DNA from: an uncultured Eubacteriales bacterium
Lineage (GTDB): Bacteria > Bacillota > Clostridia > DSM-8532 > CAYYEC01
Length of the DNA: 13,127 nucleotides
Assembly (NCBI GenBank): GCA_964470745.1
Contig: CAYYEC010000047.1
Location: 1-13,127, forward strand
Direction: 5' to 3'
Position 1 is the first letter of the stretch; each line of letters starts with the position of its first letter. Below, piece after piece: positions 1,380 to 13,127 of this stretch. The notes beneath the pieces were generated by a model. It did not search any database, was not told the origin of the DNA, and saw only the letters and a list, made by a program, of their open reading frames with translations. A program made the translations under genes and the position numbers.

Positions 1380-2318
1380 ATGAAAATAGCAAAGAAAACA
1401 ATTATTATTACAATGAGTTTATTAGTGATGACAGTAGTATTTGTGGGGTGTAAGCCATATGATAAGCCTGAATTAGTTACAATTGAACCATCTCAGACTG
1501 CATTTTTAATACCATTAGTAGGTAAGACTTCCGATCAGACAGAATTCATGAGTGAGAAATTTTTAGAAGGAGCAAAGGTAGCTACAAAAGAAATTCAAAT
1601 ACCTCATAGATGGCTACAGGAAGGAAGGGTGGAATATACTGGTAAGTGGATTCCATCAGCGAAATTAATTGTAGTCGAAAGAAAACCTGAAACAAGGGAA
1701 TGGACAGAAACTTCGGGAACAGGTACTTCTTCGAAAAATGAGGGAATTGTTGCAGAATCAAAAGAATCAATAAGCTTTATGGCAAGAATGAATTGTTCCG
1801 CTCAGATAGATGAATCAGATGCAGTAAAATTTTTATATAGATATAATAATAAGGCATTATCTGAAATCATGGATTTTGAATTAAGAGCAAGAGTTGAAAG
1901 TAATTTTGTTGAAGAATGTGCAAAGCTGTCATTAGAAGAAATTCTAATCAAAAAAGGTGAAATTATGGAAAATGTAAGAGAGGATGTTAAACAATATTTT
2001 AAGGAAAGAGGCATAACAGTAACTTCGTTAGGATTAAAAGGAGACTTTACATACGTAAATTCAGAAATACAAAAGTCAATAGATGAAAAGTTTAAATCAG
2101 CACAGGCCTTAATAACTCAAAAAAATGAAAATGAAAGAATTGTAAGCAAAGCAAAAGCTGATGCGGAAGCTATTAAAATACAAGCAGAAACAATTAAAGA
2201 CACTATTAGACTTAAGGAATTAGAAGTACAGGCAAAAACTATCGAGAAATGGGATGGTAAAATGCCTCAGTTTATGGGAGGAGAAAGTGGAACAATTTTA
2301 AATATACCTTTTAATTAA
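1380..2318 (+). CDS. SPFH/band-7 (prohibitin/flotillin-like) domain lipoprotein
   Basis: ATG at 1380 lies 10 nt after AGAGGGGG (1362-1369) and overlaps the stop of the upstream gene, so the two are translationally coupled. The N-terminus MKIAKKTIIITMSLLVMTVVFVGC is a signal peptide with a lipobox-like VFVG|C. The core LRARVESNFVEECAKLSLEEILIKKGEIMENVREDVKQYFKERGITVTSLGLKGDFTYVNSEIQKSIDEKFKSAQAL...AKADAEAIKIQAE follows the band-7 pattern (L..EIL..R.EI...V...L...GI.V..V.I.D...P.EV..A......AE.E..A.I..AE). Confidence 0.7.
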   Translation: MKIAKKTIIITMSLLVMTVVFVGCKPYDKPELVTIEPSQTAFLIPLVGKTSDQTEFMSEKFLEGAKVATKEIQIPHRWLQEGRVEYTGKWIPSAKLIVVERKPETREWTETSGTGTSSKNEGIVAESKESISFMARMNCSAQIDESDAVKFLYRYNNKALSEIMDFELRARVESNFVEECAKLSLEEILIKKGEIMENVREDVKQYFKERGITVTSLGLKGDFTYVNSEIQKSIDEKFKSAQALITQKNENERIVSKAKADAEAIKIQAETIKDTIRLKELEVQAKTIEKWDGKMPQFMGGESGTILNIPFN

Positions 2319-2412
2319 TATTAATAAGACCAGATGGCAGTTTGTACTATAGATTATGAAGATATCACAGACAATATTTGCAAGCGCATGAAGAAGGCGC
2401 TGCGACAGACAG

Positions 2413-2514
2413 AGTTACTATTCTTCTCAACAAGAGACTTCCAAAGTTTGTATCATGTGACTCCAAAAAAATAAGCTTGTTAACAAAACAAATATTTTGA
2501 GAAGAATAGTAACT
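2413..2514. repeat. 18-bp perfect inverted repeat flanking 66 nt, in the leader of the small membrane-protein gene
   Basis: AGTTACTATTCTTCTCAA (2413-2430) and its exact reverse complement TTGAGAAGAATAGTAACT (2497-2514). The 66-nt insert contains the 10-bp palindrome TTGTTAACAA (2477-2486). The right arm runs into the nested palindrome GTAACtGTTAC (2509-2519). Confidence 0.5.
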
Positions 2515-2542: not shown

Positions 2543-2866
2543 ATGCAATTTGCTTCAATTTCATTTACAATGACAGGAACATGTATTGCTGCAATTGGAT
2601 TTATAATAAGACAATTTAGCTTAGTTAATATAATTTTAGGATATGATCCTGATAAAGTGGTTAACAAGAAGGGGATGGCTAGATGGGTTGGCAAAAATCT
2701 TATGCTGATGGGTTTAACTTGTGCATTGCCAAGCTTTATACGAATGTTTATTATTAACTATGAAGGCTTTATTCCTTTATTTATTGAAGCTGCTTTGTAT
2801 TTAAGCATTATTGGCTTTTTTAGTCTAAGGCTGGCCAATGGATATAAGATGTTCGAAAAACCATAA
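2543..2866 (+). CDS. Small integral membrane protein (107 aa; possibly DUF3784-like)
   Basis: Strong SD AAGGAGG is 7 nt upstream of ATG 2543. There are three hydrophobic segments. The motif GYDPDKVVNKKGMARWVG between TM1 and TM2 is reminiscent of the AGYNTMSKEEKEKYD-type small membrane proteins. Confidence 0.55.
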   Translation: MQFASISFTMTGTCIAAIGFIIRQFSLVNIILGYDPDKVVNKKGMARWVGKNLMLMGLTCALPSFIRMFIINYEGFIPLFIEAALYLSIIGFFSLRLANGYKMFEKP

Positions 2867-7562: not shown

Positions 7563-8588
7563 ATGGGAATGAAAAAAATTATCAAAGCAGTTTCATTGAT
7601 GATGGTGTCAGCAATGATGGTGTCAATGGTAGCTTGCACTGGGGCAAGTAAAACAGCTCCAGCGACTTCTTCGGAAACAAAGGCTGAAACTAAAGCAGAC
7701 AAAAAAATAGTATTAGGATTTTCACAAATTGGGGCAGAAAGTGAATGGAGAACAGCTAATACTGAATCAATTAAGCAAGCAGCTGCTGATGCAGGTATAG
7801 AATTAAAATTTGCTGATGCACAAAATAAACAGGAAAACCAGATTAAAGCAATTAGATCATTTATTGCACAAAAAGTTGATGTTATAGCATTTTCACCGGT
7901 TGTTGAAACTGGCTTTGAAACAGTTCTAAAAGAAGCTAAAGCGGCTGGAATACCAGTTATACTTACAGATAGAGCAGTTGATGTAGATGATGATTCTTTA
8001 TATGTAACATTTATGGGATCTGACTTCGAAATAGAAGGAGAAAGAGCTGCTAACTGGCTAATAGAATATATGGATAAAAAAGGTAAAACAGGTGATATAA
8101 ACATAGTTGAACTTCAAGGTACTGTAGGTTCAGCTCCAGCAATTGACCGTAAAGACGGATTTGAAAAGATCCTTAAAGATCATCCAAATTATAAGATAAT
8201 CAAATCACAAACTGGTGACTTTACTCGTGCATTAGGTAAAGAAGTTATGGAAGCTTTCTTAAAATCAGATGGAGATAAAATTGACGTATTATTTGCACAC
8301 AATGATGATATGGCAATTGGCGCAATACAAGCAATCGAAGAATATGGTAAAAAACCAGGTGAAGATATTACAATCGTATCAATCGATGGTGTTAAAGGTG
8401 CGTTTGAAGCTATGATAGCTGGTAAATTAAATTGTACAGTAGAATGTAGTCCTCTTCTTGGACCACAATTGATGCAATCGGTTAAAGATTTAATGGCAGG
8501 TAATGAACTACCTAAGAGAATAGTAACTGAAGAAGGCGTATTTCCGGCAGAAGTTGCTGCTGAAGAATTCCCAAATAGAAAATATTAA
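7563..8588 (+). CDS. ABC transporter sugar-binding lipoprotein, YtfQ-like (galactofuranose/furanose-type); paralogue of the sensor at 3105-4106
   Basis: Signal peptide MGMKKIIKAVSLMMVSAMMVSMVAC with a lipobox (MVA|C), followed by a Ser/Thr/Lys-rich linker. The mature protein aligns colinearly with the sensor: GFSQIGAESEWRTA, QENQIKAIRSFIAQKVDVIAF, IPVILTDR, GTVGSAPAIDRKDGF, HNDDMAIGAIQAIEE and PGEDITIVSIDGVKGAFEAMIAGKLNCTVECSPLLGPQLM. Both end with PNRKY. Confidence 0.85.
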   Translation: MGMKKIIKAVSLMMVSAMMVSMVACTGASKTAPATSSETKAETKADKKIVLGFSQIGAESEWRTANTESIKQAAADAGIELKFADAQNKQENQIKAIRSFIAQKVDVIAFSPVVETGFETVLKEAKAAGIPVILTDRAVDVDDDSLYVTFMGSDFEIEGERAANWLIEYMDKKGKTGDINIVELQGTVGSAPAIDRKDGFEKILKDHPNYKIIKSQTGDFTRALGKEVMEAFLKSDGDKIDVLFAHNDDMAIGAIQAIEEYGKKPGEDITIVSIDGVKGAFEAMIAGKLNCTVECSPLLGPQLMQSVKDLMAGNELPKRIVTEEGVFPAEVAAEEFPNRKY

Positions 8589-12322: not shown

Positions 12323-12352
12323 TTGATTTTAATACGGATTTAAGGGTATAAT
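12323..12352 (+). promoter_or_regulatory. Weak candidate promoter downstream of the ABC transporter operon
   Basis: TTGATT (12323-12328), 18-bp spacer, TATAAT (12347-12352). No clear intrinsic terminator follows the permease stop. Confidence 0.2.
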
Positions 12353-12435
12353 TTAGTAGTTATTATATTAAACGTACAAATGATTCTACATCAAATTAAT
12401 ATTGATATTTGTTCGTTTAATGAGTTTTATAGGTG

Positions 12436-12486
12436 TAGATTTCGCGTAAGTTAAATTAAAATGCAGAATCATTTATGCGAAATCTA
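12436..12486. promoter_or_regulatory. Imperfect 14-bp inverted repeat upstream of the alcohol dehydrogenase gene (candidate operator or leader hairpin)
   Basis: TAGATTTCGCGTAA (12436-12449) and TTATGCGAAATCTA (12473-12486) are complementary except for one G/T position, with a 23-nt spacer. The right arm overlaps a TATAAT at 12485-12490. Confidence 0.3.
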
Positions 12487-12531
12487 TAATATAAATTTTA
12501 ATAACTGACATATAATATCGGAGGTTTGATT

Positions 12532-13127
12532 ATGATAAATTTTGAGTTTTTAAGTCCTACAAAAATAATATTCGGAAAAGGTACTGAAAGTAAGGTTGGT
12601 AGTGAGACTTGTAAATATAGCAAAAAGATTTTACTTCATTATGGAGGCGGAAGCATAAAAAGATCCGGTCTTTATGATAAGGTAGTTAAGTCTTTAAGTG
12701 AAAGTGGAGTGGAATTTCTTGAGCTTGCAGGAGTTAAGCCAAACCCAAGGCTTAACATGGTTAATGAAGGTATTGAATTATGTCGTAAGGAAGATATCAA
12801 CTTTATACTTGCTGTGGGTGGTGGAAGTGTAATTGATTCTGCTAAAGCTATTGCAATGGGAATACCATATAAAGGTGATGTGTGGGATTTCTATACAGGT
12901 AATGCAGAAGCTAAGGAAGCGCTGCCAATCGGAGTAATTCTTACAATTCCTGCGGCAGGTAGTGAAGCAAGTCCAGCTACGGTTATTACAAATGAAGATG
13001 GATGGTATAAGCGTGGAGTAAATGCGGAGGTACTAAGACCCGTTTTTTCCATACTAAATCCGGAACTTACATACACGCTGCCGCTAAACCAGACTGTTGC
13101 AGGTGCAGCTGACATAATGGCCCATAT
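12532..13127 (+). CDS. Iron-containing (group III) alcohol dehydrogenase, NADH-dependent butanol-dehydrogenase-like; N-terminal 198 codons, continuing beyond the window
   Basis: GGAGG (12520-12524) is 7 nt before ATG 12532. The translation is MINFEFLSPTKIIFGKGTESKVGSETCKYSKKILLHYGGGSIKRSGLYDKVVKSLSESGVEFLELAGVKPNPRLNMVNEGIELCRKEDINFILAVGGGSVIDSAKAIAMGIPYKGDVWDFY...LPIGVILTIPAAGSEASPATVITNEDG...VLRPVFSILNPELTYTLPLNQTVAGAADIMAH. This closely follows the BdhA/BdhB pattern (PTKVFFGKG...YGGGSIKRNGIYD...ELSGVEPNPR...LAIGGGSAIDCSK...GDTWD...LPIASILTLSATGSEMD...DPTYTYTVPKNQTAAGTADIMSH). It is absent from the ORF track because it has no stop in the window. Confidence 0.8.
   Translation, partial: MINFEFLSPTKIIFGKGTESKVGSETCKYSKKILLHYGGGSIKRSGLYDKVVKSLSESGVEFLELAGVKPNPRLNMVNEGIELCRKEDINFILAVGGGSVIDSAKAIAMGIPYKGDVWDFYTGNAEAKEALPIGVILTIPAAGSEASPATVITNEDGWYKRGVNAEVLRPVFSILNPELTYTLPLNQTVAGAADIMAH

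Follow-up and report, generated by a model that had tools for sequence, protein, structure and literature searches.

A perfect 18-bp inverted repeat in the leader of a DUF3784-like gene from an uncultured Clostridia-like organism, a candidate small invertible DNA switch

Introduction

What does a perfect inverted repeat, its two arms separated by 66 nt, do in the leader of a small membrane-protein gene? The repeat examined here lies in an AT-rich Clostridia-like organism, in a stretch of DNA, referred to below as the window, that comprises a whole contig of 13,127 bp with 31% G+C. A preliminary description of the 102-bp element had put forward three candidates, a structured leader or small RNA, a miniature inverted-repeat transposable element (MITE), and a pair of operators, among which we cannot tell, positive evidence having been found for none. 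The reading that we rank first is absent from those three, although it is covered by the fallback of the same description, a protein-binding site. In this reading the element is a candidate inverton, a small invertible DNA switch in the leader of a DUF3784 gene, acted upon by a tyrosine recombinase resembling RecV or Xer. We hold it tentatively, as a serious contender, and the sections below weigh it against the other explanations where the evidence bears on them.

The inverted repeat and its setting

The features of the locus, in window coordinates, are the following.

1380-2318, plus strand: SPFH/Band 7 gene, upstream of the element and itself preceded by a small membrane-protein gene
2334-2474, plus strand: open reading frame of 46 codons that crosses the left arm and reaches the enclosed segment, probably not a gene
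2378-2405, plus strand: GC-rich hairpin, -10.9 kcal/mol, 8 nt upstream of the left arm
2413-2430: left arm of the perfect 18-nt inverted repeat, AGTTACTATTCTTCTCAA
2431-2496: enclosed segment of 66 bp, putatively invertible, with an A7 tract (2465-2471), the palindrome TTGTTAACAA (2477-2486) and AAGCTT
2497-2514: right arm, TTGAGAAGAATAGTAACT, the exact reverse complement of the left arm
2509-2519: palindrome GTAACTGTTAC, which overlaps the right arm at its end and adds a third GTTAC motif just beyond the repeat
2543-2866, plus strand: DUF3784-like membrane-protein gene, 107 aa, with a strong ribosome-binding site, AGGAGG, at 2530-2535

The inverted repeat is real and non-random, far beyond what chance would provide. 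We simulated the window 300 times with a first-order Markov model; among perfect inverted repeats whose arms lie no more than 150 nt apart, the longest averaged 11.2 nt per simulation and was never longer than 15 nt. The analytic expectation for a perfect repeat of at least 18 nt is 2.4e-4. The arms are 100% complementary over their 18 nt, and their centres stand 84 bp apart, which is 8.0 helical turns. When as many as three mismatches are allowed, the 18-mer is found in the 13-kb window as these two arms only. The geometry given in the preliminary description, an 18-bp perfect repeat around 66 nt with palindromes nested at 2477-2486 and 2509-2519, is thus confirmed, and its remark that the arms are too far apart to make one operator describes the 66-nt separation correctly.

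The element lies within the 225-nt gap between the SPFH and DUF3784 genes, on whose common strand it begins 95 nt downstream of the former and ends 28 nt before the ATG of the latter. With 15-16 nt between its end and AGGAGG, it leaves the ribosome-binding site uncovered; this agrees with the earlier statement that the site is not sequestered, and the distance to that site had likewise been given correctly. The gene that starts at 2543 does encode a small membrane protein, as had been said. Its product matches the Pfam family DUF3784 with E = 4e-6 and 27.4 bits, just below the cut-off of 28.1, and the gene is presumed to be the target of any regulation exerted by the element. No terminator-like site was found within 2319-2542, so co-transcription of the SPFH and DUF3784 genes is plausible. 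The 46-codon frame has no Shine-Dalgarno sequence, its product has no Pfam or NCBIfam match, and two protein searches returned no homologue. It was rejected as a gene remnant as well, having no word-level homologue and a single spurious, repeat-summed HMMER match.

Immediately upstream of the left arm, positions 2380-2412 are 61% G+C, against 31% for the window. A GC-rich stretch had been reported at 2385-2412; its composition is as described, but the string quoted for it spans 2380-2414. The hairpin at 2378-2405 has no U-tract and hence is no canonical terminator. Within it, 2381-2404 form a 24-nt exact and in-frame match (KRMKKALR; E = 0.06) to a gene on a Paraburkholderia plasmid that encodes an IS5-family transposase; the codons of the stretch are GC-rich and atypical of a contig with 31% G+C. 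Since the 46-aa frame has no transposase homologue, we judge that the match probably arose by chance, with some residual doubt; the sequence would otherwise be a tiny foreign fragment.

Relatives of the locus are few. At 90% identity, neither the DUF3784 protein nor any other tested protein of the window is grouped with a second sequence, and the sole other record is an independent 2.5-kb Logan contig, L001, from SRR14817123. No arm of the repeat marks the start of that contig, which falls at 2362 of the window, past the SPFH stop codon and before the element. Homologues of the SPFH protein with 70-74% identity occur in metagenome-assembled genomes of Clostridia and Bacillota. Seven loci that encode them show no intergenic similarity to the window, and a DUF3784 gene follows the SPFH gene in just one, unrelated genes following in the others. 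In that one, from a related Clostridia assembly (L057, 4001-5710), the SPFH gene is followed after 39 nt by a gene for a 242-aa protein with DUF3784 and bPH_5 domains. Judged by predicted domains, the SPFH-DUF3784 pairing recurs, the downstream protein of L057 appearing as a longer, two-domain version. The DUF3784 protein of L057 is barely similar to the one here (E = 1.1), however, which leaves the orthology of the gene pair uncertain.

Resemblance to the ends of RecV-dependent switches

Invertons are defined by inverted repeats of 10-40 nt (PMC11892184, PMC5903667), and the present locus, with 18-nt repeats enclosing 66 nt of intergenic or 5'UTR sequence, has this architecture. In Clostridia-like genomes the median number of invertons is about three (PMC11892184). 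The recombinase that acts on an inverton is often encoded elsewhere in the genome (PMC5903667); no recombinase gene was found in the 13-kb window.

A further clue lies in the arms themselves. For the RecV-dependent flagellar (flgB) switch of C. difficile, the consensus of the left repeat is 5'-AAGTT(A/G)CTAT(A/T)TTACAAAAAA-3' (PMC5386303). The outer 10 nt of each arm in the window, AGTTACTATT, match this consensus at 10 of 10 positions and in the same register, counted from the outer end. In simulations based on the composition of the window, such a 10-mer match has a background of 2e-5 per position and about 2e-4 per 18-mer in any register. The match was noticed post hoc, and correction for comparable repeat families brings p, by our estimate, to about 0.005-0.01.

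According to the RecV model, each end of a switch is a dimer site composed of a 13-bp arm, a 6-bp spacer and a second 13-bp arm; cleavage occurs at the spacer edges, and the spacer has to be identical at the two ends of one switch but differs between switches (PMC12282940). Under this model the 21-mer of flgB divides into 12 + 6 + 3. Alignment to the flgB repeat would give 11 + 6 + 1 for the 18 nt here, the numbers standing for outer arm, spacer and remainder. On the left, the putative arm is 2413-2423 and the spacer, TTCTCA, is 2424-2429, plus 1 nt; on the right, the outer arm covers 2504-2514 and is preceded by the mirror spacer TGAGAA at 2498-2503. The two ends consequently carry the same 6-bp spacer in opposite orientations, as must be so in a perfect repeat once the flgB alignment has set the register of the arms. 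A division of this kind would explain both where the identity stops and why the arms are strictly Watson-Crick.

The complete RecV dimer consensus, AWAGTWNCCNTTW-N6-WAANGGNWACTWT, was applied at about one mismatch per 10 bp (PMC12282940). The element fails it over the full 32 bp, with 9 of 22 mismatched positions at the left end and 7 of 22 at the right, where about 3 are allowed. The outer arms have 3 of 11 mismatches each, and the inner arms are near chance level. This failure leaves the element without an established place among RecV sites; only the claim that it works like a RecV switch has moderate support. The arm consensus is itself non-specific in a window so rich in A+T, where it gives 391 matches at three mismatches or fewer against 380 expected, and the fit of 2506-2518 to the 13-nt arm with one mismatch is to be read with the same non-specificity. 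Two other families of recombination site, integron attC and Xer dif, presumably misfit in the order of the GTTAC/GTAAC motifs and in their arm sequences.

The outer part of the right arm together with one flanking base, AGAATAGTAACTG, recurs exactly at 8517-8529, in the 3' end of a sugar-binding protein gene, likely by chance (E ~0.1). This copy was considered as a recombination partner and rejected, since it belongs to coding sequence and has a different 6 nt next to it, which makes it incompatible as a partner site.

Orientation of the segment and a possible mechanism

The flipped orientation was not seen in either assembly, the window or the independent contig L001; the latter agrees with the window in orientation and crosses both arms without an assembly break. 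The junctions to be expected after a flip are ...CTATTCTTCTCAAAATATTTGTTTTG... and ...GGAAGTCTCTTGTTGAGAAGAATAG..., the first joining ...TATTCTTCTCAA to AATATTTGTTTTG... and the second ...GGAAGTCTCTTG to TTGAGAAGAATAG.... When the segment is flipped in silico, a terminator is created in neither orientation. Two promoter-like sites, TCAACA-18-TATCAT (from 2427) and TTAACA-16-AAGAAT (from 2480), both weak at 9/12, face the DUF3784 gene in the present orientation only. The segment is unusually short. It measures 66 bp between the arms and 74 bp from spacer centre to spacer centre. Cre is quoted as needing 82 bp to recombine efficiently, more than is available here, yet in vivo it remains active at 24 bp (PMC11260471).

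On the inverton reading, strand exchange inside the identical spacers would flip the 66-bp segment, and the same recombination would preserve the identity of the two arms. The orientation could then set the amount of DUF3784 protein by way of the two weak promoter-like sites, which face the gene in the present orientation alone; alternatively, it could alter read-through from the SPFH operon, as in the cwpV and flgB switches of C. difficile. The analysis establishes the perfect repeat, where it lies, and the identity of its outer 10 nt to the flagellar-switch repeat, whereas recombinase binding, the division into arm and spacer, inversion and a regulatory consequence are all putative for this element. 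In its most specific form, the proposal is of a minimal tyrosine-recombinase inverton outside C. difficile that combines the outer arm of the RecV flagellar switch with a 6-bp spacer of its own, flips 66 bp (74 bp between crossover points) within an apparent SPFH operon, and phase-varies DUF3784. We regard this form as possible, if somewhat doubtful.

Were it true, the RecV code of arm plus spacer would extend to uncultured Clostridia, and the smallest size recorded for such switches would fall. Confirmation of the inversion would show that switches can work at lengths far below the 150-200 bp of those in C. difficile. It would also mean that a RecV-type arm can be recognised from sequence in uncultured Clostridia, which bears on what RecV-like recombinases actually read, and would tie the uncharacterised DUF3784 membrane proteins, here paired with SPFH, to phase variation. 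A RecV-like regulon would show itself as further inverted-repeat pairs that start with AGTTACTAT and carry different 6-nt spacers. Should the inversion fail to be confirmed, the element would be no more than an orphan repeat and would matter little in general.

Mobile element or neutral duplication

Perfect terminal repeats bounding a small, non-coding, intergenic unit are also what a mobile insertion would display, and the element could be a MITE or the remnant of one, 102 bp long, non-autonomous, with 18-bp terminal repeats, and carried passively in a transcript between the SPFH and DUF3784 genes. The gap between these genes is 39 nt in L057 and 225 nt here, a difference compatible with inserted DNA, although the slight similarity of the two DUF3784 proteins detracts from the comparison. 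A perfect palindromic unit of 79 bp, with 30-nt arms, elsewhere in the window suggests that the genome tolerates such elements. The flanks, however, ...GACAGACAG and GTTACCTTAG..., contain no direct repeat, so that a target-site duplication is lacking, and no transposase with matching ends was found.

It had been proposed that the 18-mer be sought in multiple copies, and neither the window, which has no second copy, nor the large collections favoured this. We scanned for the 18-mer in 596 Gb of genomes, in JGI metagenomes and in IMG/VR, about 17 chance matches being expected, by our arithmetic, in the 596 Gb. Exact matches numbered 12 in genome contigs, 32 in metagenomes and 10 in viral sequences; they are single arms in unrelated taxa, extend to no more than 25 nt, and stand at chance level. 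Searches of plasmid and phage DNA gave short chance matches only. Two candidates were examined and discarded as chance. A 25-nt match in the viral contig L048 lies inside a phage open reading frame and in another reading frame, and an inverted pair of 10-mers in L019 fails to extend. No related copy thus appeared in the genome, metagenome, viral, plasmid or phage collections, among which the source genome is not represented. An insertion would also leave the match to the flgB switch repeat unexplained. We consider a mobile origin unlikely.

The repeat might instead be a neutral by-product of a recent inverted duplication or template switch, functionless and destined to decay. This explanation agrees with a repeat that is perfect, single and orphan, for which neither conservation nor an Rfam family was detected and whose regulatory logic is not clear. 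Template switching usually perfects quasi-palindromes that are closely spaced, however, and arms 66 nt apart are unlike its usual substrates. Nor would a neutral event account for an in-register identity of 10 nt to a known recombinase site, or for placement exactly in the leader of a gene. We find this origin rather improbable, and the inverton remains our first-ranked reading.

RNA stem or operator pair

If transcription reads through from the SPFH gene, the repeat would fold into an 18-bp duplex with a 66-nt loop, which might serve as an RNase III site or stabiliser that uncouples DUF3784 from SPFH. The plausible co-transcription of two genes with no terminator between them accords with this, as does the GC-rich hairpin that precedes the stem, and whichever way the segment is turned, the fold is dominated by the predicted stem. 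The fold of 2400-2545 has z = -2.9, owed entirely to the 18-bp stem. The stem folds equally well on the opposite strand, however, and leaves the ribosome-binding site untouched. With its 66-nt loop and no U-tract, it does not have the form of an intrinsic terminator or attenuator, for which a short-looped, GC-rich hairpin and an adjoining U-tract are typical. The preliminary description had suggested that Rfam be consulted for a structured RNA leader, and nothing in the whole window reached a gathering threshold; a permissive scan of 2250-2600 returned noise with E ~1, the best match scoring 18 bits against a gathering score of 100. The absence of any G-U pair or mismatch is unusual for a helix selected as RNA. 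Its 18 Watson-Crick pairs, set against the sole comparable stem of RNA type in the window, 18 pairs before the gene at 12534 that include 3 G-U pairs, suggest a constraint on DNA and not on RNA. A role as an RNA element is, in our judgement, decidedly unlikely.

The arms might alternatively be a pair of operators for a looping repressor, two identical inverted sites that bracket a weak promoter. The centre-to-centre spacing of exactly 84 bp, or 8.0 turns, would suit a loop, and the promoter-like TCAACA-18-TATCAT falls between the arms. Neither arm is a dyad, though, which is unlike the normal operators of dimeric regulators. There is no regulator gene beside the element; the two-component system nearby belongs to a sugar ABC-transporter cluster. 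The motif is not repeated before other genes of the window. We consider an operator pair very unlikely.

Other features of the window

Several further features were noted in the window. Between convergent genes, at 162-275, two adjacent perfect hairpins together reach -62.6 kcal/mol (z = -12.6). The first (162-197) is terminator-like, with a 16-bp stem and a 4-nt loop; the second (197-275) has an unusually long, 30-bp perfect stem and a 19-nt loop, and this unit of 79 bp may be a mobile palindromic element and not simply a terminator. On the minus strand at 279-854, a DUF1836-like open reading frame is interrupted by an in-frame TAA near 627-629 (…PSVNKK, stop, SKDHIILL…), at a position that we take to be usually Tyr in DUF1836 proteins. 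The frame could be a pseudogene or carry a nonsense mutation, or the stop could be a sequencing error.

The leader of a gene resembling iron-type alcohol dehydrogenases, which starts at 12534, is highly structured over 12340-12500 (z = -3.2). It contains a stem of 18 pairs, 3 of them G-U, between 12434-12451 and 12471-12488; it has no Rfam match, and may be an uncharacterised cis-regulatory RNA. A 34-nt direct repeat of 76% identity is found at 2955-2988 and 12339-12372, upstream of the sugar-sensor cluster and of the alcohol dehydrogenase gene, respectively, and may be a shared promoter or operator motif.

Comparison with known systems

Known repression loops, such as those between OE and OI of gal and between O1 and O3 of lac, use operators that are each dyad-symmetric and have a known adjacent regulator. 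The present element resembles them in having two identical sites separated by whole helical turns (84 bp) around a promoter-like site; it differs in lacking both the dyad-symmetric operators and the adjacent regulator. The MITEs RUP of Streptococcus pneumoniae (107 bp) and Correia of Neisseria are about 100 bp long and intergenic, with terminal inverted repeats; they are often co-transcribed, form long hairpins, occur in many copies and are flanked by TA target-site duplications. The element shares their size and terminal repeats, whereas it is single-copy in searchable data and has no duplication.

Closer parallels are found among the switches of C. difficile. In the cwpV switch (Cdi1), the repeats lie 57 bp before the start codon and the promoter is upstream of the switch (PMC2784873). 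That switch, like the element here, stands between a promoter or upstream transcript and an ATG, at 57 bp in the one case and 28 bp in the other. It need not contain the promoter, and the protein that it controls is a cell-envelope protein, which likens it to the DUF3784 case. The repeats differ, being 21 bp, imperfect and around 195 bp in cwpV but 18 bp, perfect and around 66 bp in the window. The OFF orientation of cwpV makes an intrinsic terminator, whereas no orientation-specific terminator is predicted here.

The flagellar switch (Cdi4, flgB) has several specifics in common with the element (PMC5386303, PMC12282940). It is located in a 5'UTR (PMC5386303), so that in both cases inverted repeats occupy a 5' leader in an AT-rich Clostridia genome; both have the outer 10 nt AGTTACTATT, a repeat length that fits an arm plus a 6-bp spacer, and a recombinase that is not adjacent. 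On the other side, flgB encloses 154 bp and not 66 bp, its spacer is TACAAA and not TTCTCA, and a flagellar operon, not a DUF3784 gene, lies downstream. The inner arms here mismatch the RecV consensus, and inversion, recombinase and regulation, demonstrated for flgB, are putative in the window. The position of the element between genes, in the 5' leader of a membrane-protein gene whose start codon is 28 nt away, fits the known Clostridial switches.
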